DNA from: Dehalococcoidia bacterium
Lineage (GTDB): Bacteria; Chloroflexota; Dehalococcoidia; Lucifugimonadales; UBA3495
Reading direction: 5' to 3'
Length of the DNA stretch: 64,000 bases
Assembly: GCA_965243255.1 (NCBI GenBank)
Contig: CBDEUH010000004.1
Location: 766,979 to 830,978, forward strand
Below are positions 9,522 through 37,463 of the stretch, in pieces (positions within the stretch are counted from its first letter, which is position 1; every line of letters begins with the position of its first letter). The position numbers and the translations under genes were made by a program. The notes below the pieces were generated by a model. That model worked only from the letters and a program-made list of their open reading frames with translations. It searched no databases and was not told where the DNA came from.

Positions 9522-11146
9522 CCAAGAATCACGACGAGTACCGCACGCTTTCGGGGATACCTGTTGAGGGGCTTTATTCGGCGGAGGGGCTGGAGACTGG
9601 CGGGTTTGATGCGGGGCGGGATTTGGGGGCTCCGGGGGAGTTTCCCTTTACGCGGGGGGCTTATCCCAATATGTACCGGGGGCGGCTTTGGACGCGGCGG
9701 CAGATTGCCGGGTTCGGAACGGCGGCGGCGACCAACGAGCGGTACCGGTTCCTGCTGGCGCACGGGCAGACCGGGTTGAGCACGGACTTTGACCATCCGA
9801 CGCTGACCGGGTATGACTCGGACCACGAGCTGGCCGAGGGCGAGGTGGGTCGCCTGGGTGTCGCTATCGATAGCGCCGCCGACATGGGCGAGCTGTTTGA
9901 CGGCATCCCGCTGGAACAGGCCAGCGTGTCGCTGACCATCAACCATCCGGCCATCGTGCTGCTGGCGATGTTTCTGCACACCGCCGAGAAGCGGGGGACG
10001 CCCTGGCCGTCGCTGCGCGGCACGGTGCAGAACGACTCGCTGAAGGAGTTTCACGGGCAGAAGACCTTTGCGCTGCCGCCGGGGCCGGCGCTGAAACTGA
10101 CGACGGACGTGGTGGAGTTCTGCACGGAGCGGGTGCCGAACTGGTACACCATATCCATCAGCGGGTACCACACGCGGGAGGCGGGGTCGGACGCGGTGCA
10201 GGAGCTGGCGTTCACCATCGCGCAGGGGATGGCCTACGTGGAGTCGGCGATGCGGCGGGGGCTACCGGTGGACGCCTTTGCGTCGCGGCTGTCGCACTTC
10301 TTCGGGGTGCACAACGACTTCTTCGAGGAAATCGCCAAGTTTCGGGCGGCGCGTCGGATGTGGGCGCGGCTGATGCGGGAACGCTACGGAGCGACGCGCC
10401 CGGAGTCGATGCGGATGCGGTTCCACACGCAGACGTTAGGCTCGACGCTGGTGCGGCAGGACCCGCTGAACAACATCCTGCGGGGCGGATTGCAGGCGTT
10501 GGCCGCCGTGCTGGGCGGCACGCAGTCGCTGCACGTGAGCGGGTACGACGAGGCTTACGACATACCGTCGGAAGAGGCAATGAGGATTTCGCTGGCGACG
10601 CAGATGATACTGGCGCATGAGTCGGGAGTGGCGGCGACGCCGGATCCGCTGGGCGGGTCGGCGTACCTGGAGACGCTGACGAACAAGCTGGAAGAGGCGG
10701 CGATGGGCTACATCGAGCGCATCGACGGGATGGGCAACGGGAGCATGCTGGACGGGATGCTGGAGGCCGTGGGCAGCGGGTACATCGAGAGCGAAATCGC
10801 GCAGGCGTCGTACTGCTACCAGCAGCGGGTGGAGAGCGGCGAGTACACGATTGTAGGGGTCAATGACGAATATCGGGACGAAGCGGCATCGGCCGGGTCG
10901 TTGGAGCTGTTTGAGTTTGACCAGGCGGAGGAGGACCGGCAGATTGAGCGTCTGGTCGCCGTGCGTCGGGGTCGGAGCGAGGCGGATGCGTCGGCGGCGT
11001 TGCGCGGAGTGGTCAAGACGGCGCGGGCCGAGGGCAACCTGATGCCGGCGATACTGGAGGCGGTGGCCGCCGGCGTTACGGAGGGTGAGATAATGGGGGC
11101 GCTGCGGGATGAATGGGGTGAATACGTTGACCCTGGGGTGTTTTAG
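9518..11146 (+). CDS. methylmalonyl-CoA mutase-family large (substrate-binding) subunit
   Basis: Track ORF. Motifs [44 protein letters not shown]. Confidence 0.9.
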
Positions 11147-11163
11147 ACGGTGGCTGCGGAATC

Positions 11164-11601
11164 ATGACTACGGCTGTTGAATCGGGTAGGCTCAATCCGC
11201 CGCGGGTGTTGTTGGCCAAGCTGGGGCTGGACGGGCACGACCGGGGGGTGAAGGTGATCGCGCGGGCGCTGCGGGACGCAGGGATGGAGGTGGTGTACCT
11301 GGGGATGCGGGTTAGTGCCGACCAGGTGGCGGCGGCGGCGGCGCAAGAGGACGTGGACGTGGTTGGCATCAGCATCCTGTCGGGGGCGCATATGCGGTTG
11401 ATGCCCAGGATGGTGGATGCGTTGGAGAGGCACGGGCTGAGGGGCGGTGACGACGGAGATAGCGTGATATTGCTGGTGGGTGGGACGATACCCGACGGCG
11501 ATGTCGAATCACTGCGAGAGATGGGGGTGGACGGCGTGTTTCCGGTAGGTACGTTCACGAGCGAGATGGTGGAGTTCATTCGGTCGGGCGTGGTCAAGTG
11601 A
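11164..11601 (+). CDS. cobalamin-binding small subunit of acyl-CoA mutase
   Basis: Track ORF. B12-binding DxHxxG motif (LGLDGHDRG) and Rossmann-like order. Confidence 0.9.
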   Translation: MTTAVESGRLNPPRVLLAKLGLDGHDRGVKVIARALRDAGMEVVYLGMRVSADQVAAAAAQEDVDVVGISILSGAHMRLMPRMVDALERHGLRGGDDGDSVILLVGGTIPDGDVESLREMGVDGVFPVGTFTSEMVEFIRSGVVK

Positions 11602-11639
11602 ATTTACATGGATGAACGGGATTGACGGGATCTAAAATT

Positions 11640-15107: not shown

Positions 15108-16382
15108 ATGCCGAACAATGATGACGATGCTCTCACCGAGCGAGGGACTGGCCTACCCCTGCCGTTGACTGGGGTTAGGGTGCTTGATGCTACGCATATT
15201 GTGGCGGGGCCGTTTTGTTCGCAGATTCTGGCGGATATGGGGGCCGAGGTTATCAAGATTGAGCGGCCTCGTACCGGGGACTTGGCCCGGGGGCGGGAGC
15301 CTTTCATCGGGGATGATGATACTGGACGGGTGAGCAGCCGTTTTCTGGGGGTGAACCGCAACAAGAAGTCGGTTACGCTGGATTTGCGCAACGAGGTCTG
15401 CAAGGGAGCGTTTGAGAGGCTGGTGGCCAACTCGGACGTGCTGCTGGACAACTGGGGGCCGGGCGCCTTCCGGCGGCTGGGTTTGGGCTACGACCGGCTC
15501 AGCGAGATAAACCCCCGGTTGATTTACGCCGAGATCTCCGGCTATGGCGACGGCGAGGGGGCGCGTGGGCCGTATTCGGACTGGCCGGCCAACAACCTGG
15601 CGATACAGGCGATGTCGGGATGGATGGAAGTTACCGGCGAGCCGGGCGGGCGGCCCCAGGCGGTGGGCGACAACATCGGCGACTCCGTGCCGGGAGTCTG
15701 GACGGCGCTGGGCATCGTGCTGGCGCTGGAAACTCGGCGACAGACCGGGGTGGGACAGCACGTTGACGTGGCGATGTACGACTGCATGACGTCGCACCTG
15801 GTGAGCAACATGAACGCCTACCAGGCTACGGGGCATAACAGCGACTACACCCATGGACGCACCCGGCAGGCGTCGCTGGGGCCGGGGCTCGTCTTTGAGG
15901 CGGCGGATGGTTATGTAATCATGGCCGGAGTGCGCAGTCCGCAAAGGTTGGCCGCGATGTGGGATTTGATTGGCCGCAGCGATTTACCGGAGCAGGACGA
16001 ACGGTATTTGCAGCAGTTTCCGGACGCCGATTTTGTGTTTGAACGGGTGATACCGGCCATTGAAGAATGGTCGTCGCAGCGTCCCAAGTGGGAGGTGGCG
16101 GGCAAGCTGACGGAAATCGGGTTTTCCATGGGCGTTACGCAGAGCATATCCGACCTGGCGAACTGCCCGCAGCTGGCGGCGCGGGGAATGTACGTTGACA
16201 CCGACGACTCCATCGGCGGAACTTTCCGGTCGCTGGCGACGCCGATACGACTTACGGGGTGCGAGCCGTCCGCCGCCGGAACGCCGCCCACGCTGGGGCA
16301 GCACAACGCCGAGATTCTATGCACGCTGGGCGGGCTGACGGTGGAACAGTTGGCGGAATTGGAGGCGGAGGGAGCCGTTTGA
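15108..16382 (+). CDS. family III CoA-transferase (CaiB/BaiF type)
   Basis: Track ORF. GVRVLDATHIVAGPFCSQILADMGAEVIKIERP. Confidence 0.9.
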   Translation: MPNNDDDALTERGTGLPLPLTGVRVLDATHIVAGPFCSQILADMGAEVIKIERPRTGDLARGREPFIGDDDTGRVSSRFLGVNRNKKSVTLDLRNEVCKGAFERLVANSDVLLDNWGPGAFRRLGLGYDRLSEINPRLIYAEISGYGDGEGARGPYSDWPANNLAIQAMSGWMEVTGEPGGRPQAVGDNIGDSVPGVWTALGIVLALETRRQTGVGQHVDVAMYDCMTSHLVSNMNAYQATGHNSDYTHGRTRQASLGPGLVFEAADGYVIMAGVRSPQRLAAMWDLIGRSDLPEQDERYLQQFPDADFVFERVIPAIEEWSSQRPKWEVAGKLTEIGFSMGVTQSISDLANCPQLAARGMYVDTDDSIGGTFRSLATPIRLTGCEPSAAGTPPTLGQHNAEILCTLGGLTVEQLAELEAEGAV

Positions 16383-19024: not shown

Positions 19025-19194
19025 GCGGTGGTGGATGAGATCGTGAGGGGGCTCGCTCTTGACGCCAACGGTCTCCCGCCAGGATAGAGGGAGTTTGGCG
19101 CGGACCCTCGAATTACTGCGCTTGCCCATTGCGGAATCCCGGCGTAGAATGGCGGCACTTATCAACACCACAGAGAAATCAAGGAGAACCGGTC

Positions 19195-20409
19195 ATGGCA
19201 GAAGCGAAAGGCCCCCTGGACGGAATACGCGTAATTGACCTCGGTCGGCATCAGGCCGGCCCCCGCTGCGCTCAAGTTCTCGCCCGCCTGGGCGCGGAAG
19301 TCATAAAAGTCGAGCGCTTGGGCGGCGAGGAAACCCGTTACCATGCCCCCTGGGTTCGCAAGCAGTCGGCCTACTGGGTACAGTACAACAGCGGCAAGAA
19401 GAGCCTGAGCATCGACCTGCGCAAGGAAGAAGGCAAGGAAGTGCTCCGCAAGCTGGTCAAGGTCTCGGACGTCCTGCTGCAGAACTTCCGGCCCGGCACC
19501 ATCGACATCATGGGCTTCGGCTATGACGTTCTCTACGAGCTGAACCCCCGTATCGTCATGGTGAACGTCTCTGCCTACGGTCAGTTCGGCCCGTACCGGG
19601 ACCAGATTGGTTATGACCCCATCGGCCAGACGATGTCGGGAATCGCCATGGTAACCGGCGAGGAGGGAATGCCTCCGATTCGCGCCGGCGTGCCCATCAT
19701 CGACCGCACCACTGCTCTCCACGCGGCCATCGGTACGCTGGCTGCATTGCACGAGCGGGAATCTTCCGGCCTCGGTCAGTGCATTGACGCCTGCCTGGCG
19801 GACACCGGGTACAGCTATACGGAGATCCCCGTCACCGCATATCACGGCGCCGGCATTGAACCGCGTCGTGGCGAGTCGGCGGCGCCGCCGTCGGGTACCT
19901 ACCCGTGCAAGGACGGCTGGGTGCTGATTTCCGCAGGTGACCAGCACCACTGGCATCGCGTCTGTAACGCGCTGGGCAAGCCCGAGTGGCTGGAAGACCC
20001 GCGCTTTACCACCCGCCACGAGCGCGGACGTAACGGTGAGGCGGTCAACCAGGCCATGCGCGACCTGATGGCCGACATGACCATGCGGGAGGCCATCGCG
20101 CACTTCACGCATCACGACGTGGTTGCGGCGCCGGTGAACACCATCGCGCAGGCCGCCGCCGACCCGCACCCCTGGGAGCGGCGTGCCATGGTTGAGGTGG
20201 ACGACTTCCTGGCCGGCAGCATAGCCGTGTCCGGCGACTTCTGGCACTTCAGTCGGACGCCGGCGGTGGTGGGCACCACGCCGCGGGTTGGCGAGCACAA
20301 TGAGGACGTGCTGACGGGTCTGCTGGATTACACCGAAGAGCAGGTCCAAGCGCTGTACGAGGCCAACGTCATCGGCACCTTCGACCACTACGACGAAGTG
20401 CCCGGCTAA
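19195..20409 (+). CDS. family III CoA-transferase (CaiB/BaiF type), second paralogue
   Basis: Track ORF 19129..20409, trimmed to the ATG at 19195 with AAGGAG 8 nt upstream. GIRVIDLGRHQAGPRCAQVLARLGAEVIKVER. Confidence 0.9.
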   Translation: MAEAKGPLDGIRVIDLGRHQAGPRCAQVLARLGAEVIKVERLGGEETRYHAPWVRKQSAYWVQYNSGKKSLSIDLRKEEGKEVLRKLVKVSDVLLQNFRPGTIDIMGFGYDVLYELNPRIVMVNVSAYGQFGPYRDQIGYDPIGQTMSGIAMVTGEEGMPPIRAGVPIIDRTTALHAAIGTLAALHERESSGLGQCIDACLADTGYSYTEIPVTAYHGAGIEPRRGESAAPPSGTYPCKDGWVLISAGDQHHWHRVCNALGKPEWLEDPRFTTRHERGRNGEAVNQAMRDLMADMTMREAIAHFTHHDVVAAPVNTIAQAAADPHPWERRAMVEVDDFLAGSIAVSGDFWHFSRTPAVVGTTPRVGEHNEDVLTGLLDYTEEQVQALYEANVIGTFDHYDEVPG

Positions 20410-20489: not shown

Positions 20490-21434
20490 TTAGTCAACGT
20501 GTTGCATGATGTCGCCGGCGAACCAGTCCAGTCGCTCCAGGGCTTGGTTGAGGTCGCTGCCGCGGATGTCGAAGATGATGTGGGATACACCGACCTCGGA
20601 GTAGGTGTGCACGTCTTCCAGAATGGCGTCGGGTGAGCCGGAGAAGCGGCGACGGGGGCCGGATTGCATCGTGGCCGGGTCGTAGAGCGGCGCCTTCATT
20701 GAAATCTGTATCTCGGCCGGGTTGCGGCCGGCCTGCTCGGCGTAACGGTTGAGGGTTACCAGGTCGCCCGCCAGCTCTTCGGGTTCCAGCGTGGCCGCCG
20801 GGATGGTGCCAACTGGATGCCAGCCGTCCCCGATGGTGGCGGCGCGGCGGATGGCCGGACGGCTCTGCCCGCCGACCCAGATAGGCGGATGGGGCTTCTG
20901 CAGGGGCTTGGGCAGGAACTGAATGTTGGAGAACTGCACGTACTTGCCGTCGAATTCCGGGTTGGGACTGGTCCACAGCTCCTGGTAAGCGCGGAGATAT
21001 TCGTCGGTTACGGCGCCGCGTTCAGCAAATGGAGGAGTGCTCAGCGCCTCGAACTCCTCTTCCATCCAGCCGACACCGACGCCCAGAATCAGGCGTCCTT
21101 GGGACAGGACGTCCAGCGTGGCCAGAATTTTGGCGGCCAGGATGGGCGGGCGGTAGGGAACAATCATGACGCTGGGCACCAGGCGGATGTTCTCGGTTAC
21201 GCCGGCCAGGTAGGTGAGCAGGGTCAGCTGCTCGAAGTACTCGCCGCTCTCGCCGGTGGGAAACTCGCCGCCTACGGTGTAGGGATAGGGCGAGTCGATG
21301 CGGCTGGGCACCAGCACGTGGTCGCCGGCCACCATGCAGTAGAAGCCGAGGCGGTCTCCGGTCTGGGCGATTTGCGCCAGCGGACCGGGCTGGGCGTTGG
21401 GGCCGTGATTGGGAAGGTAAAATCCGAATTGCAT
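20490..21434 (-). CDS. LLM-class F420-dependent oxidoreductase
   Basis: Track ORF 20490..21515, trimmed to the ATG at 21434 (MQFGFYLPNHGP...) with AGGAG upstream. Typical LLM TIM-barrel pattern. Confidence 0.85.
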   Translation of the reverse strand: MQFGFYLPNHGPNAQPGPLAQIAQTGDRLGFYCMVAGDHVLVPSRIDSPYPYTVGGEFPTGESGEYFEQLTLLTYLAGVTENIRLVPSVMIVPYRPPILAAKILATLDVLSQGRLILGVGVGWMEEEFEALSTPPFAERGAVTDEYLRAYQELWTSPNPEFDGKYVQFSNIQFLPKPLQKPHPPIWVGGQSRPAIRRAATIGDGWHPVGTIPAATLEPEELAGDLVTLNRYAEQAGRNPAEIQISMKAPLYDPATMQSGPRRRFSGSPDAILEDVHTYSEVGVSHIIFDIRGSDLNQALERLDWFAGDIMQHVD

Positions 21435-21471
21435 TGGACCACTCCTGACGGATAGGGCGAGGGAGCGTTGG

Positions 21472-21600
21472 CTAGACGCCAACCTGAACCTCACAGGCGC
21501 CGAACACCAGGGCAATAATGATCAGGACAACGACGATGCCCGCCACTACGCCGAGAACGCATCCGCAGCCTTTGCTGAACGAGTCAAAGAATCTAAACAT
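21472..21600 (-). CDS. possible 42-aa single-TM micro-protein
   Basis: Below the track cutoff. My translation is MFRFFDSFSKGCGCVLGVVAGIVVVLIIIALVFGACEVQVGV. It lies 37 nt upstream of, and co-oriented with, the LLM gene. No clear SD. Confidence 0.3.
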   Translation of the reverse strand: MFRFFDSFSKGCGCVLGVVAGIVVVLIIIALVFGACEVQVGV

Positions 21601-27174: not shown

Positions 27175-28917
27175 ATGAACATGGAAAGAATACTGATACA
27201 GCGTTTCAAAACGGTAATGGCCGTTGGGTGCGGCCTATTGCTGGTGCTGGCGGTGGCCTGCGGGACTGCCGCCGAACCCAGTGAGACGGCCCCGTCCACG
27301 GGTAGCAGCGACGTACAGGCGACCGCGCCGGCGGCGGCTGCATCGCAACAGCAGGTCGCGACCGCCGCGCCGGTGCAACAAGCAGATTCGTCGACTTCCG
27401 CTCAACAACAGAACGAGCCCGCTGAAGCCGCAATGGCGGAGCGGCCCATATTGAACGCAGGCGTCATCTGGTTGGACAGTCCCCTGGACCCGGTGCAGAG
27501 CGGTTGGGTTGCCAATCAATCGGGGATGTCGGAGAACCTGTTCCGACTGTCGGGAAGCACCCTCAGTCCGGAGCCGTGGCTGGCAACGGAAGCCACGCAT
27601 GTGGACCCATTGACCTGGGAGATAGAAATCCGGTCGGGGGTCAAGTTCCACAATGGCAACCCGTTGGATGCGGAAGCGGTGAAGGCTTCCCTGGAGCGGG
27701 CCATTCGGATGTCGGAAGCGGCGGCGGATATATTGTCTGCCGACACGATATCGGTTAAGGACGCGCAGACCATCACCATCACCACCACGGCGCCGCAGCC
27801 GACGTTGCCGGGCCTGCTGATTACTCCGGTATTCGGCATTCACGACGCGGTGGCGGCGGACGCCGCCGGCGAGGGCAATTTCATCGAAGCGCGCGCGCTT
27901 ACCGGGCCGTACATTCCCACGGCTTACGTCCAGCTGGAGCACCTTGACAGCGTAGCCAACGACGATTACTGGGGTGGACCGCCCCCGCTGGCCGGCATCA
28001 ATAGCCTTGCGATCCCAGATACCAACAGCCGGGAGCTGGCGCTGCAGGCCGGAGACGTGGACATCATCATCAACGTGTCACCGGATGGATCCCAGGTAAT
28101 CAACGCCAACCCGGGCACGCAAACCGCGACCGCCGGCCTGGGCACCGCCTTGGTGCTATGGTGGGTCAACTTCGAACGCGGCACGCTGGCCGACCCGCTG
28201 GTGCGTCGGGCGGTGGCGCACGCCATTGACCGGGAGAGCATCGCCGGGCTGGTGGCGCCCTCCGGAGCGGGGTCATTCGCAGAGTTTATGCTGCCGGAAG
28301 TGGTGGTCTCGTGTCCTGACGTACAGGCGCCGGCCTATGATCCTGACGAAGCCCGCCATTTGCTGGAAGATGCCGGCTACTCGGACAGCGACGGCGACGG
28401 AATCCTGGACAAGGATGGTCAGCCGCTGGAAATTATCATCGGCGGTTACCCTCAGCGGTTCCAGCTGCCGATTATGGCCGAAGCCGCACAGGCGATGCTG
28501 GCCGATGTTGGAATCAAGGTGAACGTGCAAATCACCGAATGGTCGGTGGTAAAGGAACCCGCCTGGGACCTCTTCGGCTGGTACAACGGTGTCGTGGAAG
28601 GCGGCGGAGACCCGGTGTTCAACATCAGCAAATTCGCCGGACTGCGAGCCGATGCCGGCGGCACGGGCGGCAACAACTACGGGCACTATGACAATACCGC
28701 CCTGGCGGAAATAGTGGGGCCATCGGTATCGGTGTCCGACGTAGATGGCCGAAAGGAGATTGCCTGCCAGGCCCTGGCAGTCATCACTGACGAAACGGCG
28801 TTCCTGCCGGTGGCGCACATGAATCTGGTGTTCGGCATCAGTGACAAGGTCACCGATTTCTCGCCCCATCCGTCCAGTCTCTATTTCTTCGACCATCGCG
28901 TTGGCCTGTCCGAGTGA
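27175..28917 (+). CDS. ABC transporter substrate-binding lipoprotein, family 5 (peptide/nickel type), riboswitch-controlled
   Basis: Track ORF. Signal peptide with lipobox LAVAC-G, then a Ser/Ala/Gln linker. Family-5 SBP body. Confidence 0.85.
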   Translation: MNMERILIQRFKTVMAVGCGLLLVLAVACGTAAEPSETAPSTGSSDVQATAPAAAASQQQVATAAPVQQADSSTSAQQQNEPAEAAMAERPILNAGVIWLDSPLDPVQSGWVANQSGMSENLFRLSGSTLSPEPWLATEATHVDPLTWEIEIRSGVKFHNGNPLDAEAVKASLERAIRMSEAAADILSADTISVKDAQTITITTTAPQPTLPGLLITPVFGIHDAVAADAAGEGNFIEARALTGPYIPTAYVQLEHLDSVANDDYWGGPPPLAGINSLAIPDTNSRELALQAGDVDIIINVSPDGSQVINANPGTQTATAGLGTALVLWWVNFERGTLADPLVRRAVAHAIDRESIAGLVAPSGAGSFAEFMLPEVVVSCPDVQAPAYDPDEARHLLEDAGYSDSDGDGILDKDGQPLEIIIGGYPQRFQLPIMAEAAQAMLADVGIKVNVQITEWSVVKEPAWDLFGWYNGVVEGGGDPVFNISKFAGLRADAGGTGGNNYGHYDNTALAEIVGPSVSVSDVDGRKEIACQALAVITDETAFLPVAHMNLVFGISDKVTDFSPHPSSLYFFDHRVGLSE

Positions 28918-28960
28918 TGATCGATACCGGCCGGCACGGGATAAATAGACAGCCGTCGGC

Positions 28961-29908
28961 ATGTTTGCATACCTGACCCGACGGCTGGCTACCCTGCCGC
29001 TACTGCTGCTGGGAATCTCGGCGGTCAGTTTCGCATTGCTGAATCTGGCCCCGGGAGACCCGGCGGAGATTGTGCTGCGTCAGCGTCACCCGGGGCAGCT
29101 GCCCAGCCCGGTGGAAGTGGCGGCCATGCGAGAGGAGTTGGGGCTGAACGCCCCCTTGCCGGCGCAATACGTGCGCTGGGCGACTCAGGCGCTGGCTGGA
29201 GACCTGGGCAAGTCATTCACAACAGAACAGCCGGTGGCCGCCCAACTGGCGCGCCGCACCGTACCGACGGCCCTGCTCACGGTCGCTGCGTTCTCTCTGG
29301 CGCTGATGGTTGCCGTGCCCATGGGCATATTATCGGCCCGCAAACGGGGCAGCGCCCTGGATACCGTGGCGCGTCTGGTGGCGCTGGTAGGGGCGGCGGC
29401 CCCATCCTATGCCCTGGCCTACGGGCTAATCATACTGTTCGCGGTGAAACTCTCCTGGCTGCCGGCCCTGGGCTACGGCTCGCCGGCGCAGGTGATACTG
29501 CCAGCCTTCGCGTTGTCGCTGGGGCCCATGGCGCAGCTGATGCGGCTAATCCGGGCCAGCATGCTGGAGACCCTGGGTGAGGACTACATCCGAACGGCGC
29601 GAGCCAAGGGGTTATCCGAGCGAGTGGTTGCCTTCCGGCACGCCCTTCGCAACGCGCTGCTGCCGGCCATTGGAGCTACGGGGGTGAATCTGGGATACCT
29701 GCTCAGTGGAGCCGTCATCGTGGAAACCATCTTTACCTGGCCGGGCTTGGGTCAACTGATGGTAGGCGCGGCGGTGACCCGGGATTACCCCGTGGTGCAG
29801 GGGTTTGTGACGTACATCGCAGTGGTAGTGCTGCTAGTTAACTTGGCCGCAGACATTGCTCTGCGCATCGCCGACCCCCGTTTGCGTTTCGGGCGGGACG
29901 AGCTGTAG
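28961..29908 (+). CDS. ABC transporter permease (DppB/NikB type)
   Basis: Track ORF. Loop DYIRTARAKGLSERVVAFRHALRNALLP. Confidence 0.9.
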   Translation: MFAYLTRRLATLPLLLLGISAVSFALLNLAPGDPAEIVLRQRHPGQLPSPVEVAAMREELGLNAPLPAQYVRWATQALAGDLGKSFTTEQPVAAQLARRTVPTALLTVAAFSLALMVAVPMGILSARKRGSALDTVARLVALVGAAAPSYALAYGLIILFAVKLSWLPALGYGSPAQVILPAFALSLGPMAQLMRLIRASMLETLGEDYIRTARAKGLSERVVAFRHALRNALLPAIGATGVNLGYLLSGAVIVETIFTWPGLGQLMVGAAVTRDYPVVQGFVTYIAVVVLLVNLAADIALRIADPRLRFGRDEL

Positions 29909-29914
29909 CATCCC

Positions 29915-30811
29915 ATGACGAGCAGAGCTGAACAGTCCGGGGAACACGTTCCCGTCCTAGCCGTGGCCAGCGGCGCGCGTCAGAGACGGCGCTGGACCGG
30001 TCTGCTGCGGGAGCCGGGAACCGCGCTGGGCCTGTTCCTGGTATTGACGCTGCTGTCGGCCGGGGTACTGGCTCCCTGGCTGCCCCTGGATGATCCGACC
30101 CAAATCAATCTGCCCGACCGGTTGCTCCCACCGTCAGCAGAGCGTCTGTTGGGCACCGACCACCTGGGCCGGGATACTTTCAGCCGGATTGTGCATGGGG
30201 CTCGGATGACGCTGTTGGCCGCCACCGTGACCCTGGGTTTGAGCATGGGCATCGCGTTGACCGTGGGCATCTTGTCCGGGTACCACGGCGGCTGGGCGGA
30301 CACCGCGCTGATGGGCGTGGTGGACCTGCTGCTAGCGTTTCCTTCGCTGATATTGGCGTTGGCAGTGGCCGGCGCATTGGGGCCAGGATTGTTCAACGTG
30401 CTGCTGGCTGCGGGAGCAGTCTGGTGGGTTGGTCACGCTCGCATCATCAGGGGCGTTACGCTGGCAACCCGGCAACAGGAGTACGTGACGGCGGCGCGGG
30501 CCACGGGAGCCAGCGGCTTCAGGATCATCGTGCGGCACATTGCGCCCAACATTATCGGGCCGATTATCGTGATCGCCTCGCTGGACGTGGGATGGATTAT
30601 CCTGGGTATCGCGGGCCTGAACTTCCTGGGGCTGGGGGCGCAGCCGCCCACGCCGGAATGGGGGGCGATGCTCAACGATGCTCGCCCGCATCTACAGACT
30701 ACCCCGAGGCTGCTGCTGCTGCCGGGCACGGCTATCTTCGTCGCCGTGCTGGGGTTCAACCTGTTGGGCGACGGATTGAGGGACTTGCTGGACCCTCGGA
30801 CTACGGGATAA
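29915..30811 (+). CDS. ABC transporter permease (DppC/NikC type)
   Basis: Track ORF. Loop EYVTAARATGASGFRIIVRHIAPNIIGP. No ATPase gene follows. Confidence 0.9.
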   Translation: MTSRAEQSGEHVPVLAVASGARQRRRWTGLLREPGTALGLFLVLTLLSAGVLAPWLPLDDPTQINLPDRLLPPSAERLLGTDHLGRDTFSRIVHGARMTLLAATVTLGLSMGIALTVGILSGYHGGWADTALMGVVDLLLAFPSLILALAVAGALGPGLFNVLLAAGAVWWVGHARIIRGVTLATRQQEYVTAARATGASGFRIIVRHIAPNIIGPIIVIASLDVGWIILGIAGLNFLGLGAQPPTPEWGAMLNDARPHLQTTPRLLLLPGTAIFVAVLGFNLLGDGLRDLLDPRTTG

Positions 30812-31694
30812 TCCCCAGCCTCTCCGCCAGCCACGCGCCCCGGACGACTGCGTGCTCGTGTCCGCCACCCTCGGCGGCGCCGTCGTAAAGGCGGAAATCG
30901 CAATTGGGCAGGGCGGCAGCCAACTCTTCGGCAAGGGGTAGGGGGCACAGGCTCCGGTCGGAACGGCCCGCGCTCAGCAACACGGGAGCCGACACGGACG
31001 GAGCGGCCGGCAGCGGATTGAGCAGCGACAGGGTTTCCGTGACGGCTTGCCGGCTTTCGGGATGGGAGCGCAAATAGTCGCCCAGCTCGCCCAGGGGGTA
31101 GCCCAAGCCGGGCTGCAAGGCCGTCGGATGCCCCAGGGCCATGGGCGTATCGGCGGCGACGGCGGCCACATTGGGACGCCGGGCGGCTGCGACCAGAGCC
31201 AGGGCGGCGCCAAGGCCGGCGCCGGTCAGGGCCACCGCGCTAGTCTGCGCTACGTTTTGGGCAGACAGAGCGTCCATGGCGCGGAGGGCGTCGGCGTAAG
31301 CGCCGAGCAGGACGTAGGTTTGGGCTGTTTCGACGCCATCGGTAAGCAGGCCGGGGTAGCTGGCGCGATATATCACGTCGCTGTTGCGCTGGCCCCGGTG
31401 GGTGGCGTTCATCACTACGGCGCGGTGACGCAAGGACGTGTAGATTATGTCGTGCACGCTGGCGTAGTCGGGCATCCGGATTAGCGCGGGGAATGGGCCG
31501 CCGCCGTCTTTGGGGACGGAGAGCCAGGCGAACAGCCGGTGGCCGTCGGTGGTGTCGTAGTGCATCCGGTACACGTCCCACTCGGGCTGGGAGTAGAACG
31601 TGTCATGCTCCAGCGTAACGTTGAGGTCGGTCTCGGCCAGTTGGGCATCGGTTTGCTCCCAAAAGGCGGCCGGGGATGATGGCATACTGGTCAT
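30801..31694 (-). CDS. acetyl-xylan-esterase-like alpha/beta hydrolase paralogue lacking the nucleophile serine
   Basis: Track ORF 30801..31877, trimmed to the ATG at 31694 (MTSMPSSPAAFWEQ...). It aligns by eye with the next gene. The GxSxG position reads TGAGLG instead of GSSQGG. The Asp (GRSDRSLCP) and His (GGGHEH) positions are retained. Confidence 0.65.
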   Translation of the reverse strand: MTSMPSSPAAFWEQTDAQLAETDLNVTLEHDTFYSQPEWDVYRMHYDTTDGHRLFAWLSVPKDGGGPFPALIRMPDYASVHDIIYTSLRHRAVVMNATHRGQRNSDVIYRASYPGLLTDGVETAQTYVLLGAYADALRAMDALSAQNVAQTSAVALTGAGLGAALALVAAARRPNVAAVAADTPMALGHPTALQPGLGYPLGELGDYLRSHPESRQAVTETLSLLNPLPAAPSVSAPVLLSAGRSDRSLCPLPLAEELAAALPNCDFRLYDGAAEGGGHEHAVVRGAWLAERLGIIP

Positions 31695-31704
31695 GGTGAA
31701 CCAC

Positions 31705-32637
31705 TCAGGCCGGCGTCGTGCCGATGCGCTGCTGCAGCCAGGCGGCCTCGCGGGCAGGGTATTGGTGGGCGTTGCCGTGTCCGGAGTTGGGGAAGAGCCA
31801 GAGCTCACGCTGGCCGCCGAGCGAGCGGTAGGCAGCGTAGCTAGTTTCGGGCGGGCAGACTTCGTCCTCCATAGCAATGCCTACGACCATAGGGCACTTG
31901 ATGCGTGGGGCGAAGTTCACAGCGTCGAAATAGCGCAGAGTTTCCAGCATTTGCTCGACGCGGTCGGGGTAGGCGCGGGCGTAGCAGGAAAGTTCGTCGT
32001 AGGGGTAGCTGCGCAGCATCTGCATCGATTCGGGGAAGCAGCACAGGAAGGGATAGCCGGATACGCCGGCCTTGATTTCCGGGCGCAGGGCCGAGGTTAT
32101 CAGGGTCAAGCCGCCGCCCTGGCTGCTGCCGCAGCAATAGATTCGGTCGGGGTCAATTTCGGGTCGGGACAAGAGGAAATCGACACCGCGCAAGCAGTCG
32201 GAGATGACGCCCTTGTAGCTGTACGCATTGCGGTCTTCCAGGCCGTTGGTGAGCAGACCGGGGTAGCCGGGGTTGAACTTGCTGCTGCTGGGCAGCTTGC
32301 CGCGCACGGCAACCGACAGCGCGGCCACGCCTTTGCCGCCCCAGTCCCGGCGCAGGGACGGTTCAGACTTGTAACCGGGCAGGATCAGCACCGCCGGGAA
32401 CGGGCCATCGCCCACGGCCGGCACGCTGTACCAGGCAAAAATCTCCAGATCGTCCAGGCTGCGGTAGCCGACCTGGTACACCTTGACGGCGTCGGTGCTG
32501 CGGAGGGGGTCGTGGTTGATTCCGGCATCCAGAGGGATTGCGGCCAACTCCGCCTGGACTCCGTCCCAGAACGGGTCAAAGTCATCGGGACAACTGACCT
32601 TCGTAGTGAAGGCTACCAAGTCTGCCTGAGTTGCCAT
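31705..32637 (-). CDS. acetyl xylan esterase / cephalosporin-C deacetylase-family alpha/beta hydrolase
   Basis: Track ORF 31705..32688, trimmed to the ATG at 32637 with GGAG upstream. Nucleophile elbow CCGSSQGGG, acid MEDEVCPP, His NSGHGNAH. Confidence 0.75.
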   Translation of the reverse strand: MATQADLVAFTTKVSCPDDFDPFWDGVQAELAAIPLDAGINHDPLRSTDAVKVYQVGYRSLDDLEIFAWYSVPAVGDGPFPAVLILPGYKSEPSLRRDWGGKGVAALSVAVRGKLPSSSKFNPGYPGLLTNGLEDRNAYSYKGVISDCLRGVDFLLSRPEIDPDRIYCCGSSQGGGLTLITSALRPEIKAGVSGYPFLCCFPESMQMLRSYPYDELSCYARAYPDRVEQMLETLRYFDAVNFAPRIKCPMVVGIAMEDEVCPPETSYAAYRSLGGQRELWLFPNSGHGNAHQYPAREAAWLQQRIGTTPA

Positions 32638-32766
32638 GCTGCATACTCCGTCGGCGCCGATTGGCCGGTTTTCCACCGCATTATACACGGTGTACCCGGT
32701 GCTATAATGCGCTCACCTGTCGCCGGGCTGACTGCGCCGGCGCGCACTTGCGGAGATGAAAACGAT

Positions 32767-33654
32767 ATGAAAGCTGGGTTTATTGGCGTCGGCAACATGG
32801 GCAACCCAATGGCTGCGAACATGATAAAGGCCGGGCATCAACTGACCGTCCACGACCTGCGTCGTGAGTCGGCCACCAACCTGCTGGAGATGGGCGCGGA
32901 GTGGGCGGATACGCCGGCCGGATGCGTTGCCGGGAAGGATGCCGTATTCACCTCGCTGCCGGTGCCGCGGGACGTGGAGGCGGTGGTGATGGGCGAGAAC
33001 GGCATCATGTCCGCCGCCGGCGCCGGCGACGTGTACGTTGACCTGTCCACCAACTCGCCCACGGTCATACGGAGCATTCATGCCGAATGCGCCGCCCGGG
33101 GCGTAACCGTGCTAGACGCTCCGGTGAGCGGCGGCGTGTACGGCGCGGCGGCCGGCACGCTGGCGGTGATGGTCGGCGGCGACGAAGCGACCTACAACAC
33201 CGTAAAGCCCATGCTGGACGCCATCGGCGCGCACGTGGTTTATTGCGGCGAAATTGGCAACGGCATGGTTACCAAAATCTGCAACAACCTGCTGACCATG
33301 GGCATCGGCGTGCTGATGGCGGAGGCGCTGACGCTGGGCGTCAAGGCGGGCGTGCCCCTGGAGACGCTGGCCGACGTAATCGCCAACAGCAGCGGCGGCA
33401 GCCGTCGCCTGGTGGAAAAGCACCCGCGCTACCTGTTCGCTGGCAACTTCGAGCCGGGCTTCGCCACGGCGCTGGCCGCCAAGGACGTGCGCCTGGCTAC
33501 AGACCTGGGGCGTGAGTACGGCATCCCGATGGAGCTGTCCAACCTGGTTGACCAGCGCCACGTGGAAGCAATGTTCCATGGCCTGGGGCCGGAGGACTCC
33601 GACGCCGTATCCAAGCTGCAGGAAGAGAAGTCCGGCGTGCAACTGCGGTTCTGA
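32767..33654 (+). CDS. NAD(P)-dependent 3-hydroxyisobutyrate dehydrogenase-family oxidoreductase
   Basis: Last 295 codons of track ORF 31600..33654. ATG at 32767 ([19 protein letters not shown]...). DAPVSGG and KICNN motifs. The upstream part of the ORF is antisense to the esterase genes. Confidence 0.85.
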
Positions 33655-33665
33655 CGAGGCTAACG

Positions 33666-33989
33666 TTGTTCCGCTCGGCTTATCCTGCCAGTGACCAGCC
33701 CCGGTACATCACCCGCTACGTGTATGCCGACACACAGCTGTCCACTCACGGCGGCAACGTGGGCCGGGTCAGCATTACCAGCGAGGAGCATACTCGCTTG
33801 CAACAGATGGCCGATTTCCTGGAACGCTGCTGCAACGACCTGGACGCCGCCGGCTACGACGTTATATCCATCACACCCGTCGTCAGTGGAAGAACGTCTT
33901 ACATGGCAACCAATACCGAGTTGGCAGATCCCGGGCACGGCTACAGCGTTACCGACGGGTTGATTGTTACCGGGAAACTGCGAGAATAA
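33666..33989 (+). CDS. hypothetical protein (107 aa)
   Basis: Track ORF. TTG start 6 nt after GAGG and 11 nt after the preceding stop. The GYDVISITPVV...GLIVTGK tail is vaguely DUF4177-like. No firm family. Confidence 0.45.
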   Translation: MFRSAYPASDQPRYITRYVYADTQLSTHGGNVGRVSITSEEHTRLQQMADFLERCCNDLDAAGYDVISITPVVSGRTSYMATNTELADPGHGYSVTDGLIVTGKLRE

Positions 33990-34015
33990 CCGCTACCAAA
34001 CATCAGGAGATTACG

Positions 34016-35044
34016 ATGACCAGCAGCGCCGAACGGCACGTTGAAACCGCCGACACCATTGAGGCCATTGAGGAATGCTTCCGCCTGGGCTGGACCGACG
34101 GCCTGCCGGTGGTTCCGCCGGCCGATTATAAAGTCCGGGAGATGCTCTCCGTGGCCGGACTCACCGGCGAGGAGGAACTGCTGAACCTGGATATGCGGAG
34201 CCGGGTGATTACGTCGGAGAACGCCGCCGCCAACGCGGTGATGGCCGGCTGCCAGGCCGAATACTTCCCGGTGCTGGTTACGGCGCTGAAAACCCTGGAG
34301 GAGGAACGCAACTTCGTCAACATGGCCGCGTCCTCTACCAGTTCGCCAAGCATCCTGATGGTGCTGAACGGCCCGATACGGGACGCGCTGGGCATCAACA
34401 GCCGGGACGGATTGTTCGGCCCCGGCTTCCGCGCCAACGCCAGCATCGGGCGAGCCGTGCGCCTCTGCTTTATGAACGGGTTCGACGCCTGGCCAGGCCA
34501 GCTCGACCGGGGCACCATGGGCACGCCGGCCAAGTACACCTTCTGCATCGCCGAGAACGAGGAAACCTCGCCCTGGGAACCGCTGCACGTCAGCCGGGGC
34601 TTCGACGCCTCCGACAGCGTGGTTACCGTAGCCGTGGCCTACAACCCCGTCAGCGTGCCCAACAGCTACGGGCATACCGGACGCCAGATCCTGAACTCCA
34701 TTTGCGACTCCCTCCGTTCCGCCACCCTGGTCCATCGCTACCCGGCTCAGTGGGTCATTGTCATCGGGCCGGAGCACGCCCTGACCCTGCAAGGCGAGGG
34801 CTGGAGCCGCCGGGACATCCAGGATTACCTCATTGAGAACAGCGGACGCTCCCGCGCCGAGTTGATACGCTTGGGCTCCAAGCAGGGGCCGGAGCGACCC
34901 GGCGACGAGGACGTCATCATGCGCTGCGCCAACGAGCCCGACGACATCCTGATTATGCACGGCGGCGGCACCGGCGGACGTTACAGCGCCATCATCGACA
35001 CCACGGGCTACCGCATCCGCACCCGCAAGATTGGCGCCGACTAG
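34016..35044 (+). CDS. hypothetical protein (342 aa), family not recognised
   Basis: Track ORF. AGGAG lies 6 nt before the ATG. Good coding texture (…CFRLGWTDGLPVVPPADYKVREML…AGCQAEYFPVLV…). The antisense ORF 33941..35065 is Gly/Ala/Val junk. Confidence 0.7.
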   Translation: MTSSAERHVETADTIEAIEECFRLGWTDGLPVVPPADYKVREMLSVAGLTGEEELLNLDMRSRVITSENAAANAVMAGCQAEYFPVLVTALKTLEEERNFVNMAASSTSSPSILMVLNGPIRDALGINSRDGLFGPGFRANASIGRAVRLCFMNGFDAWPGQLDRGTMGTPAKYTFCIAENEETSPWEPLHVSRGFDASDSVVTVAVAYNPVSVPNSYGHTGRQILNSICDSLRSATLVHRYPAQWVIVIGPEHALTLQGEGWSRRDIQDYLIENSGRSRAELIRLGSKQGPERPGDEDVIMRCANEPDDILIMHGGGTGGRYSAIIDTTGYRIRTRKIGAD

Positions 35045-35142
35045 TCCGAAACAGGGGTTACGCAATCACCCGGTTTGACGGTACAATCGGGCCATCACAT
35101 TACAACCACGGTTACCACGACACCGACGGAGGTTAGATAGCA

Positions 35143-35709
35143 ATGACGACCGCCGAATCCATGAGCCGCCTCCGGCTCGTCAACCCCAAGGGCACCGAGC
35201 TGCCCCAGAGCGAATTCCACATGAACGACCGCTCCGGCGGCCTGGCCGGCAAGCGTCTGGGCCTGATGGAGAACTCCAAGGCCAACGCCGACAAGCTGCT
35301 GCATGAGTTGGGCAACATCCTCAACGAGCGGCACGGCTTCTCCGAGGTCAGGTATTTCAGCAAGCACCACGCCAGCCTGCCCGCCAAGCAGGACGTCATC
35401 GACTCCATCCTCGGCGAGGTTGACTACCTCATCACCGGGGTGGGTGATTGAGGGTCCTGCAGTTCGTGCAGTGTGCACGACGGAATCGACATGGAAAAGC
35501 GCGGCGTCCCGACGGCTGCCATCATCACCCACGTGTTCCTCAACACCGCCCAGGCCATGACCCGGATGATGGGCGTGCCCGAATATCGCTACGTGGTGGC
35601 GCAGCATCCCCTGTCCAGCCTCACCGACGACGAAGTGAAGGCTCGGGCCAACGAACTGGCCGACGAGGTTGAGTCCATTCTGACGGGCGTACCCGTAGCG
35701 TCTGCCTAA
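35143..35709 (+). CDS. UGSC-motif selenoprotein candidate (TGA at 35449..35451 read as Sec)
   Basis: Track ORFs 35143..35451 and 35473..35709 share a frame. Read-through gives LITGVGD-U-GSCSSCSVHDGIDMEKRGVPTAAIITHVF. Stem-loops lie directly 3' of the TGA. GGAGG lies upstream of the ATG at 35143. Confidence 0.7.
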
Positions 35710-35721
35710 CCCGGCGGGCTG

Positions 35722-36114
35722 TTGGTGTCAACTACCGACGGGTCAGCGTCGCCTCGCCCGGCTGTGAACCCGGCCATCCGGGCGGGCCTGACGGGCGAGG
35801 TTGAGGTGACCATCGCCTCGGAGCATCTGGCGCCCCACGTGCCGAAGTTCTGCACGCCGGCGATGCTCTTCATCATCGAGCAGGGTTGCTACCGTGCGGT
35901 AGTATCCCTGCTTTACCCGGGGCAAACCGTGGTCGGCTACCGGTTCGACATCAGGCACCTGGCGGCGGCGGGCATCGGCGACCGCGTAACGGCACGCTGC
36001 ACGCTGACCGAGGTTGCATACAACCGGCTGGAGTTTTCGGCCCAGGTACAGCGGGACGATACGTTACTGGGCACGGCCCAGCTCTACCTGGCGGTAGTGG
36101 ATCAAGCATCGTAG
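35722..36114 (+). CDS. hotdog-fold thioesterase-family protein
   Basis: Track ORF (TTG/GTG start). The pattern FCTPAMLFIIEQGCYRAV...GQTVVGYRFDIRHLAAAGIGDRVTARCTL is typical of the small FlK/4HBT-like hotdog thioesterases. Confidence 0.65.
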   Translation: MVSTTDGSASPRPAVNPAIRAGLTGEVEVTIASEHLAPHVPKFCTPAMLFIIEQGCYRAVVSLLYPGQTVVGYRFDIRHLAAAGIGDRVTARCTLTEVAYNRLEFSAQVQRDDTLLGTAQLYLAVVDQAS

Positions 36115-36146
36115 GGGCGAATGGTTATTCGCCCCTGCTACTTTTT
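36113..36146 (+). terminator. intrinsic terminator; copy 2 of the GGGGCGAAT/ATTCGCCCC element
   Basis: AGGGGCGAAT (36113..36122), loop GGTT, ATTCGCCCCT (36127..36136), then GCTACTTTTT. It overlaps the TAG stop of the thioesterase gene. Confidence 0.65.
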
Positions 36147-36157
36147 GGAGGTTCAAG

Positions 36158-36988
36158 ATGACACTGCTACCGGTTGGACGGCCGCGATTGCAAGACAAGG
36201 TCGCCATCATCACCGGAGCCGGATCAAGCGGGCCGGGGATGGGCACGGGCAAAGCGGCGTCCATACTGTTCGCCCACGAAGGCGCCAAGGTGTTGCTGGT
36301 GGACCGGAATCCCCAGGCCGCCGAAGAAACGCTGGCCGCCATCCACGAGCAGGGCGGCGAAGGCTCGGTAATCGCCGCCGACGTAACCTCCGCCGAGGAC
36401 TGCCAGGCTATCGTGGACGCCGCGCTGGAACGCTACGGCGGGCTGCACATCCTGTTCAACAATGTGGGCATCACCGGGCCCGGCACGCCCACCGACGTTG
36501 AGGAAAGCGTGTGGGACAACGTGCTGGACGTGAACCTGAAGAGCATGATGCTCACCACCAAATACGCCGTGCCCAAAATGATTGATGCCGGCGGGGGCAG
36601 CATCATCAACATGTCGTCCATCGCTGGCGTGCGGGCCGGGAGCGGGCTGGCCAGCATTCCTTACTCTGCCTCGAAGTCCGGCGTCATCGGCATGTCGGAG
36701 ACGATGGCGGTGCATCTGGGACGGGACAACATCCGGGTGAACGTGATCGCCCCCGGGCACATCTACACGCCGATGGTGGCCGGGATGATGCCGGATAGGA
36801 CCCGGGAACTGCGTCGAAAGGCGGGCCCGTTGGGAACCGAAGGGAGCGCCTGGGACATTGCCTACGCCGCGCTCTTTTTGGCCAGCGACGAGGCGCGATG
36901 GGTATCCGGCGTCGTGCTTCCGGTGGATGCCGGGTTGCTGGCGGCCACGCCCCTGGCGGTGTATCAGAAAATCCGGGAAGGGGATTAG
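36158..36988 (+). CDS. SDR-family oxidoreductase
   Basis: Track ORF. TGAGSSGPGMG cofactor motif, NNVG, and the catalytic YSASK. Confidence 0.9.
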   Translation: MTLLPVGRPRLQDKVAIITGAGSSGPGMGTGKAASILFAHEGAKVLLVDRNPQAAEETLAAIHEQGGEGSVIAADVTSAEDCQAIVDAALERYGGLHILFNNVGITGPGTPTDVEESVWDNVLDVNLKSMMLTTKYAVPKMIDAGGGSIINMSSIAGVRAGSGLASIPYSASKSGVIGMSETMAVHLGRDNIRVNVIAPGHIYTPMVAGMMPDRTRELRRKAGPLGTEGSAWDIAYAALFLASDEARWVSGVVLPVDAGLLAATPLAVYQKIREGD

Positions 36989-36993
36989 GCCGG

Positions 36994-37320
36994 CTACTCC
37001 GCTTCGATTGCGGGCCCCACCAGCACGTCGTCGCCATCGATGCGAACGGCGAATTTGCGCAGCGCCTCGGTAGCGGGAGGGGTGACCGGGTTCCCGGTGA
37101 CCACGTCGAAAACTGCCCCGTGCAGCGGGCAAACCACCTCGCTCTCTTCCAGGTCGCCCTCGGAAAGGTTGGCGTAAGCGTGGGTGCAGATGTCGTCGCA
37201 GGCGTGCATCTCCCCGTCCAGGTTCACCAGCAGAATCTCTTCGGACCCAACCCTCACCGAAAGCATATCGCCGGGTGGGATCTCGCTGAGTGAGGCAATC
37301 TTCACGAATTCGTCGGCCAT
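36994..37320 (-). CDS. Rieske [2Fe-2S] ferredoxin-like protein
   Basis: Track ORF 36994..37428, trimmed to the ATG at 37320 with AAGGAGGG upstream. CTH...CPLHG Rieske ligand motifs. Confidence 0.85.
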   Translation of the reverse strand: MADEFVKIASLSEIPPGDMLSVRVGSEEILLVNLDGEMHACDDICTHAYANLSEGDLEESEVVCPLHGAVFDVVTGNPVTPPATEALRKFAVRIDGDDVLVGPAIEAE

Positions 37321-37463
37321 AGGGATGTCCCTCCTTGAAAGTTCCGTTGCTGAAATGGAACGGGCCGACTTGCCAGCCACCCGTTTCGTCGATGCCAATA
37401 AAATTGCGGCGCGGCTATTATATGACAAATCGCCGACTGCGCGCAGCGCGCAACGCCATTCCC

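Follow-up and report, generated by a model that had tools for sequence, protein, structure and literature searches.

The UGSC selenoprotein and its 342-residue partner as probable subunits of a thioredoxin-dependent reductase

What does the UGSC selenoprotein do, and does it act alone? The question is raised by a stretch of 64,000 nucleotides (the window, meaning the whole of the DNA analysed here) from a Dehalococcoidia bacterium (GenBank assembly GCA_965243255.1, contig CBDEUH010000004.1, positions 766,979 to 830,978), in which a gene of this family lies directly downstream of a gene for a 342-residue protein, for which we use the working name P342. In metagenomes of oceans and fresh water, UGSC has been ranked since 2007-2008 with the most abundant selenoprotein families of prokaryotes, and the literature treats it as a stand-alone selenoprotein, whereas we find it paired with P342 nearly always. 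We consider it probable, at roughly 0.6, that P342 and UGSC are the two subunits of one thioredoxin-dependent reductase with a selenocysteine (Sec) or cysteine (Cys) centre, which forms a single chain in some organisms. The features at the core of the locus, in window coordinates, are:

34016..35044, plus strand: P342, an open reading frame (ORF) of 342 residues, with a GGAG ribosome-binding site in the 26-nt gap before its start
35143..35709, plus strand: UGSC-family selenoprotein of 188 residues with the motif G-D-U103-G-S-C106 (NF041046, PF24696)
35449..35451, plus strand: in-frame TGA, the selenocysteine codon, which reads GVGD-TGA-GSC in read-through translation
35465..35479, plus strand: hairpin CGUGCA-GUG-UGCACG resembling a selenocysteine insertion sequence (SECIS), found in the single-sequence fold and in the consensus of 18 homologues

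The product of 35143..35709 is by sequence a clear member of the UGSC family, above both curated cut-offs (NF041046, 156.8 bits for a cut-off of 125; PF24696, 191.3 bits for a cut-off of 25). The family alignment has invariant E118, P123, H155 and P156 and an invariant G-D-U-G-[SG]-C-S, and hence a Sec with a Cys three residues downstream (U-x-x-C), an arrangement listed for PrdB, thioredoxin-like and peroxiredoxin-like selenoproteins (Table 2, PMC2398784). Searches of the PDB sequences with the UGSC sequence and with its profile returned only noise, and a permissive Pfam scan of 17 members found no recurring additional family. Sec is used consistently: an in-frame stop stands at the U position in 77 of the 77 UGSC genes that adjoin P342 in the genome loci described below, and in 75 genome loci the codon is TGA within a strict 45-nt pattern. 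The SECIS-like stem has 6 bp, begins 16 nt past the U of UGA and spans 16-30 nt after it. An alignment of 18 diverse homologues has this structure as its consensus, with compensatory changes in two pairs and a conserved G-U-K loop; since the stem lies inside conserved coding sequence the covariation support is modest, and the single-sequence fold is no stabler than shuffles (z=+1.7).

The pairing of UGSC with P342 is close to obligate in both directions. In the forward direction, we scanned one genome per GTDB species and took the best 80 of at least 529 P342 loci, at 39-94% identity. A tblastn search placed a UGSC homologue within 6 kb of P342 in 77 of these 80 loci and within 1.5 kb in 74, in nearly all of the 77 at 50-250 nt downstream of P342 and on the same strand. 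A scan of the six-frame translations with hidden Markov models gave 78 UGSC and 81 P342 domains, with a UGSC-P342 distance that never exceeds 3.8 kb. UGSC is missing from three loci only, two of which sit on short contigs. Most hosts belong to Dehalococcoidia/SAR202, with others in Binatia, Methylomirabilota, Thermoanaerobaculia, Acidimicrobiia and Bacillus piscicola. Three close relatives of the window (L001, L004, L007) have a spacer of about 885 nt between the two genes, where about 100 nt is found otherwise.

In the reverse direction, the 45-nt DNA pattern of Sec-UGSC alone was scanned over metagenomes and yielded 80 stretches (soil, freshwater, marine), every one with a UGSC domain. P342 lies on the same strand within 1.5 kb of UGSC in 70 of them (60 upstream, 10 downstream). 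In the other ten the contig breaks off no more than about 700 nt from UGSC on one side or both, which leaves room for P342 beyond its end, and no stretch with at least 1.3 kb on both sides of UGSC lacks P342. The sole possible exception is L109, where UGSC has 709 nt before it and 12 kb after it but no P342.

The two proteins are also frequently fused. Among the 149 P342 cluster representatives listed (P0121-P0269), 33 (22%) are fusions, in both orders: 29 UGSC-P342 and 4 P342-UGSC. Many begin or end precisely at the Sec codon, such as P0129, which ends in "...AVGD", and P0152, which starts in the C-terminal half of UGSC; to judge from these ends, such truncated chains are Sec-containing fusions split by gene callers. 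Two more in-frame fusions were read directly in metagenome DNA. An earlier study assigned UGSC a likely thioredoxin-like fold and noted that it occurs fused to a conserved domain, "Unknown_1" (Zhang and Gladyshev 2008, PMC2398784). Because 33 of the 149 representatives are UGSC fusions, Unknown_1 is very probably the P342 family.

Finally, the partners diverge in step. Pairwise identities of P342 and UGSC correlate with r=0.97 over 76 loci (2,850 pairs), a value reached by none of 500 label permutations, and paralogous pairs within one genome show similar divergence on both sides (39-46% identity for P342, 38-50% for UGSC). Up to three P342 loci came from a single assembly, and one Dehalococcoidia assembly holds at least three divergent paralogous pairs. 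The original prediction, made from the letters of the window, had suggested that the 342-residue protein could be a dedicated partner of UGSC, and the two-way adjacency, the frequent fusions and the co-divergence all support it.

Thioredoxin reductase (TrxR, encoded by trxB) is fused to P342 or encoded next to the pair in several unrelated lineages. One metagenomic P342 carries at its C-terminus a fused low-Mr TrxR whose motif is CAVC; the gene directly before it encodes Sec-UGSC, and those downstream encode an epimerase and a short-chain dehydrogenase/reductase (SDR). The gene order is trxB-trxA-P342-UGSC in Arthrobacter sp. ERGS1:01, a LysR regulator gene followed by P342-UGSC-trxB in Roseovarius sp. 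THAF8, and trxB, a binding protein of a tripartite tricarboxylate transporter (TTT), SDR, P342 and a UGSC-like gene in Variovorax sp. SRS16. TrxB-like genes adjoin the pair in three further loci (L084, L101, L151). From this association in unrelated lineages, together with the U-x-x-C motif, we infer a reductase driven by thioredoxin.

Several of these hosts are in culture. Pairs of the Cys type occur in Arthrobacter sp. ERGS1:01 (WP_054009257.1 with WP_054009256.1), Roseovarius sp. THAF8, Natrinema zhouii and Halalkalicoccus jeotgali B3, and more divergent UGSC-like versions in Variovorax sp. SRS16 and Paracoccus versutus. A pair of the Sec type is present in the cultured Bacillus piscicola FBU1786 (L071, NZ_JAJJJF010000008.1, 9986-11611), where P342 is followed by a UGSC with TGA in the motif GD-U-GSC. 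The in-frame TGA implies that this strain uses Sec, so that the Sec form could perhaps be studied there experimentally. On plasmid 2 of H. jeotgali B3 (L211, 5992-8643), a Cys-type UGSC lies between two P342 genes.

What kind of protein is P342? The original prediction could place it in no family, and neither can we: the window P342 has no match in Pfam or NCBIfam, 72 diverse members searched against Pfam at E<=1 have no recurring family, the P342 profile finds only noise among PDB sequences, and a search of PDB folds gave no assignment. The exact window sequence is not on record, and the family is large. The homologues found by a word-indexed search number at least 7,701; the source names listed are all "hypothetical protein", and none has a precomputed Pfam domain. 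An exhaustive HMMER scan over 1.84 billion cluster representatives gave 4,350 P342 clusters (50% identity) with E<=1e-3, of which 888 reach E<=1e-30.

Residue conservation, computed over 172 non-redundant P342 domains, is nearly universal at Gly317 (100%), Arg146 and Glu180 (99% each), and Asp28, Cys79 and Asn141 (97% each), followed by Thr66 (91%) and by Cys177 and His254 (85% each). Positions 21 and 304 are variable, and Cys79 and Cys177 are the only conserved cysteines, the latter being absent in 15% of the domains and in several fusion proteins. In four loci (L093, L104, L113, L119) P342 carries a Cys-rich tail before its stop, directly upstream of UGSC (...C-V/I-D-G-T-C-x-L), and in L083 and L116 a tail ending in ...C-L-D-C; the window P342 has no such tail. 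This tail could be a mobile redox tail.

The AlphaFold2 model of P342, built on a 72-sequence alignment, has a predicted local distance difference test score (pLDDT) of 94 and a predicted template modelling score (pTM) of 0.92, and supersedes a poor one from 26 close homologues (pLDDT 66). The top match of a Foldseek search against the PDB is the alpha subunit of a class I fumarate hydratase, 7xky_A (E=8e-4, probability 0.85), with template modelling (TM) scores of 0.28/0.32 and a root-mean-square deviation (rmsd) of 14 Å. Further weak matches are cyclic amide hydrolases of the Toblerone fold (barbiturase, cyanuric acid hydrolase), YjgF and an epimerase of the MmgE/PrpD family; the fumarate hydratase and Toblerone-fold matches have TM-scores of 0.16-0.32 and rmsd of 12-17 Å, and the best PDB matches all stay at a TM-score of 0.34 or less with rmsd above 10 Å. 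As none is close in TM-score, we treat the predicted fold as one without a close solved relative and assign it to no fold family. In class I iron-sulfur (Fe-S) fumarate hydratases, three conserved cysteines bind a [4Fe-4S] cluster. Although these enzymes and the Toblerone-fold hydrolases are the top Foldseek matches, P342 differs from the fumarate hydratases in the low TM-scores, in the lack of sequence similarity in PDB and Pfam, and in having two conserved cysteines rather than three. The cluster-binding set of a class I Fe-S hydro-lyase is thus incomplete in P342, where only Cys79 (97%) and Cys177 (85%) are conserved.

Put together, these data suggest the following scheme. UGSC would be the redox subunit, with the centre Sec103-Gly-Ser-Cys106, and P342 would provide the substrate site, formed by the near-universal Cys79 and by Cys177, Arg146, Asn141, Glu180, His254 and Asp28. 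Sec103 would attack the substrate, or a substrate-Cys79 adduct, held on P342, and Cys106 would resolve the intermediate to give a selenenylsulfide, which would be re-reduced by electrons passing from NADPH to TrxR and thioredoxin (Trx). The substrate might be a small organic acid or its coenzyme A (CoA) ester, in a catabolic pathway, a guess to which the conserved arginines weakly point, as do the recurrent neighbours, namely SDRs, 3-hydroxyisobutyrate dehydrogenases (HIBADH), CoA-transferases, LysR regulators and transporters of the TTT and tripartite ATP-independent periplasmic (TRAP) types. In its nucleophilic Sec/Cys, its resolving Cys and the proposed recycling by Trx and TrxR, the scheme resembles thioredoxin-dependent reductases such as methionine sulfoxide reductase, phosphoadenosine phosphosulfate (PAPS) reductase, ArsC and the peroxiredoxins, and some lineages have a dedicated trxB or trxA beside P342/UGSC or fused to it. 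Unlike in those enzymes, with which the pair shares no kinship in sequence or fold, the redox motif and the putative substrate site would lie on two co-evolving proteins.

Several points weigh against a two-subunit reductase. Neither a recognisable cofactor motif nor a close solved fold was found for P342, so that its catalytic role is an indirect deduction, and the proximity of Cys79 and Sec103 in the complex is an assumption of the mechanism. There is no trxB in the window, nor did one turn up in the 80 genome loci, which are mostly from Dehalococcoidia; a housekeeping thioredoxin system has to be assumed there. The neighbours are heterogeneous, the top family accounting for 4 of 88 near-neighbour ORFs, which makes the substrate guess a weak one. 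The one locus examined that encodes a tandem P342-P342 protein has no UGSC within 6 kb upstream, with downstream sequence of 0.5 kb only. UGSC itself, first seen in Hyphomonas neptunium, is described as a "selenoprotein of unknown function" (PMC1976440), and a 2026 review still counts it among the selenoproteins whose functions are largely uncharacterised (PMC13188914).

The tandem proteins also bear on the alternative that P342 is a non-redox enzyme, a hydro-lyase, an isomerase or a two-base racemase using Cys79 and Cys177, for which UGSC would be a private thioredoxin-like activator or protector. They make up 10 of the 149 representatives, measure about 710-740 residues (P0122-P0127, P0142; L205, 6001-8154) and may lack UGSC. 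Together with the UGSC flanked by two P342 genes in H. jeotgali, they hint that the complex may be 2:1 or pseudo-dimeric, or that some forms may do without UGSC. The two conserved cysteines would suit a non-redox enzyme, and the weak fold matches are hydro-lyases, hydrolases, YjgF and an epimerase of the MmgE/PrpD family, yet their TM-scores are low (0.16-0.32). Moreover, a mere protector is not expected to be fused to its client in 22% of the representatives, to co-diverge with it at r=0.97 and to carry Sec in 77 of 77 loci. We regard this alternative as unlikely.

A further alternative takes up a resemblance seen in the original prediction, between the second half of UGSC and the selenoprotein B of the GrdB/PrdB type. 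Glycine, betaine and D-proline reductases reductively cleave a C-N/C-X bond alpha to a carboxylate. UGSC would be a divergent member of that family, P342 a pyruvoyl proenzyme like PrdA or GrdE, and the reaction a cleavage of the same kind. For the comparison, genuine PrdB proteins (PF07355) were retrieved by a search seeded with a PrdB-like sequence, 18 of them were aligned, and PrdA and PrdE were taken from the C. botulinum prd operon. The PrdB motif is T-[AG]-G-U-G-T-C-H-R, with E-x-x-G-[IM]-[PS]-T 15 residues past U; UGSC has G-D-U-G-S-C and, at an equal distance, E-x-x-G-[IV]-P-T, which gives a shared spacing U-G-[ST]-C-x11-E-x2-G-[IV]-P-T. With hhalign, Sec falls on Sec over 68 columns with a probability of 29% (E=5.8e-4), and deeper alignments give 20%, the aligned length ranging over 53-68 columns; common to both is a segment of the form strand-U-G-[ST]-C-helix-E-x2-G-I-P-T. 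However, PF07355 matches none of 17 UGSC sequences even at E<=10. The resemblance to PrdB thus appears real but local, around the Sec motif, and we claim no homology from it; the likeness noted in the original prediction is one of motif spacing, from which family membership does not follow.

The proposed partner fares worse, with an hhalign probability of 0.2% for P342 against C. botulinum PrdA and of 0.02% against PrdE. As a candidate member of PF09338, the family of PrdA, PrdD, PrdE and GrdE, P342 was rejected, having no Pfam match and hhalign probabilities below 1%. Nor was a PF09338 gene seen among the neighbour families and gene tables examined. Two features of the gene neighbourhoods would suit a selenoprotein B reductase. 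trxB-trxA genes occur in glycine reductase operons, and the trxB-trxA directly upstream of the pair in Arthrobacter resembles these; in 14 of the 24 loci at 55-73% identity, the pair is followed by a protein with a Complex1_51K domain, a domain that PrdC also has. Against this, the pair is found in aerobes and haloarchaea. Overall, membership in the GrdB/PrdB family seems quite improbable. What can reasonably be drawn is an analogy: like PrdA/PrdB and GrdB/GrdE, P342 and UGSC would form a two-component Sec enzyme made of a small alpha/beta U-x-x-C selenoprotein and a dedicated partner, fed with dithiol or thioredoxin electrons. Unlike those systems, its hosts are largely aerobes, including haloarchaea, and, unlike in glycine reductase, no equivalents of GrdA, GrdC or GrdD were seen with the pair.

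The pair could instead bind a metal, a metalloid or an Fe-S cluster at its interface, with Cys79, Cys177, Sec103 and Cys106 as ligands and no turnover of an organic substrate. Four conserved Cys/Sec residues are indeed split over both subunits, the top fold match of P342 is an Fe-S hydro-lyase, and some homologues have a Cys-rich tail (C-x-D-G-T-C, C-L-D-C). However, Cys177 is missing from 15% of the domains and from several fusions, no metal transporter or resistance gene recurs among the neighbours surveyed, and the trxB association better fits cycling of a disulfide or selenenylsulfide, all of which makes metal binding very unlikely.

It remains to place the pair in its operon. The gene list of the original prediction was confirmed in full, with its coordinates, the TTG-started 107-residue ORF, the TGA and the terminator, and so were the SDR and the Rieske ferredoxin that follow, the latter on the minus strand:

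32767..33654, plus strand: NAD(P) dehydrogenase of the HIBADH / tartronate-semialdehyde reductase type (Pfam NAD_binding_2, NAD_binding_11)
33666..33989, plus strand: gene for 107 residues with a TTG start, showing a codon-position-3 substitution bias
35722..36114, plus strand: FlK-type hotdog thioesterase of 130 residues with a TTG start (PF22636, PF03061)
36111..36148, plus strand: hairpin resembling an intrinsic terminator (12-bp stem, then a T-run) that ends the run
36158..36988, plus strand: SDR oxidoreductase (adh_short_C2, 203 bits)
36994..37428, minus strand: Rieske ferredoxin, tail-to-tail with the SDR

In the window the pair is transcribed with the dehydrogenase, the 107-residue protein and the thioesterase, all three of which are outside the conserved core. 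Least probable of all is that the five genes form one conserved Sec-dependent pathway acting on an acyl-thioester, as the original prediction proposed: the gaps from dehydrogenase to thioesterase are tight (11, 26, 98 and 12 nt), a single terminator closes the run and eight closely related genomes keep the arrangement, but the 107-residue ORF and the thioesterase are absent from 72 of 72 loci below 90% identity and from the contexts in cultured organisms, the thioesterases are 47-52% identical even among close relatives, and the HIBADH gene stops recurring under 55% identity. Of the synteny that the prediction proposed to check, the co-occurrence and adjacency of P342 and UGSC are thus borne out, and those of the 107-residue gene and the thioesterase are limited to the loci at 90% identity or more.

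The 107-residue ORF is a real coding gene, clade-restricted and outside the conserved module: the substitutions that separate it from its counterparts in eight related genomes (L001-L008) are concentrated at the third codon position (in one example, 9/5/36 at positions 1/2/3). Its product has no match in Pfam or NCBIfam, and its homologues amount to only 56 clusters in 5.8 billion proteins; almost all share at least 62% identity, and no functional name is attached to any. Among the 80 loci it occurs only in the same L001-L008 (at least 90% identity). These eight are also the only loci with a thioesterase at the window position. The window thioesterase matches PF22636 (64.1 bits, cut-off 27) and PF03061 (28.9 bits), and its identity of 47-52%, compared with about 90% for the flanking genes, suggests that the gene was replaced or evolves very fast; L001 and L002 give no blastn match to it. 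It therefore looks like a local operon addition and offers no conserved evidence on the substrate, so that the hint at an acyl-thioester which the original prediction drew from it falls away, although CoA-transferases do recur near the pair elsewhere.

The HIBADH gene reaches further: 26 of the 32 loci with at least 55% identity have an orthologue upstream of P342, and no more distant locus does, which makes the gene a lineage-level neighbour outside the core pair. Its NCBIfam matches (HIBADH, 2-hydroxy-3-oxopropionate reductase) are all under their cut-offs, as is a match to sulfolactaldehyde 3-reductase. A gene resembling phosphosulfolactate synthase (ComA-like) lies near the pair in the archaeon Natrinema zhouii (L206, 3889-4356) and the actinobacterium Arthrobacter sp. 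ERGS1:01 (L207, 4710-5498), and the two matches may possibly link the pair to sulfonate metabolism.

No third gene is common to all groups, whether among the 846 neighbour ORFs that were clustered or among the 88 near neighbours scanned with Pfam. The SDR is the sole neighbour family that recurs across several paralogue groups: its cluster is found in 28 of the 80 loci, 27 times on the same strand, and in three of four identity groups. Part of the paralogue group at 44-48% identity has an SDR 61-66% identical to that of the window downstream of UGSC, in most cases no more than about 300 nt away. The Pfam census of the 88 near neighbours, taken from the most diverse loci, counts four family III CoA-transferases and three each of homocysteine S-methyltransferase, SDR, transketolase and alpha/beta hydrolase. 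Family III CoA-transferases, TRAP/TTT carboxylate transporters, SDRs and LysR regulators are repeatedly added in the loci of cultured organisms. In the orthologue group closest to the clade of the window (55-73% identity), the pair is followed in 13-14 of 24 loci by three genes, NuoE-like, NuoF-like (Complex1_51K) and FdhA/NuoG-like, which may be an electron-input module or merely synteny within one lineage. In L028 (11887-12348) and L032 (12376-16980) they lie on the same strand and encode a NuoE-like (2Fe-2S) protein, a NuoF-like protein (Complex1_51K and NADH_4Fe-4S) and a NuoG/FdhA-like molybdopterin protein of 950 residues. A 137-residue protein of the PaREP1 family (L008, 9046-9456) adjoins the pair in 12 loci.

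Within the window we found no paralogues, no tRNA-Sec and, as said, no trxB. Upstream of the operon lie two family III CoA-transferases, a luciferase-like monooxygenase, a GFO/IDH/MocA oxidoreductase, a transporter of the major facilitator superfamily, an SBP_bac_5 ATP-binding cassette transporter and an AXE1-type esterase gene adjoining a similar-looking second ORF (15108-16379, 19129-20406 and 27175-30811 on the plus strand; 20490-21515 and 30801-32688 on the minus strand). Family III CoA-transferases adjoin the pair in other organisms; those of the window are 14-19 kb distant.

The literature that we searched contains no two-way near-obligate adjacency of UGSC and P342, no co-divergence of paralogous pairs, no link to trxB and no Cys-type pairs in cultured bacteria or haloarchaea, nor any mention that the partner of UGSC has no curated model or solved fold; a literature search for SAR202 together with selenoproteins found no papers. 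The question of what UGSC does now has a concrete object, a probable two-subunit enzyme of P342 and UGSC to which a thioredoxin reductase is repeatedly linked, and the cultured hosts of Cys-type, UGSC-like and Sec-type forms make the system testable. With 4,350 clusters and no Pfam or NCBIfam model, the P342 family merits a curated family of its own. The presence of at least three paralogous pairs in one Dehalococcoidia assembly bears on the degradation of dissolved organic matter by these bacteria.

More tentatively, and with odds that we place somewhat short of even, P342 and UGSC may represent an undescribed class of thioredoxin-dependent Sec/Cys reductases, whose catalytic subunit would have a fold with no solved relative. 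Genomes of SAR202-type Dehalococcoidia would encode several substrate-specific paralogues, the class would be spread over soil, freshwater and marine bacteria as well as haloarchaea, and its role would be a reductive step in the catabolism of organic acids or acyl-CoA. If this is true, that step is one covered by no known enzyme family.

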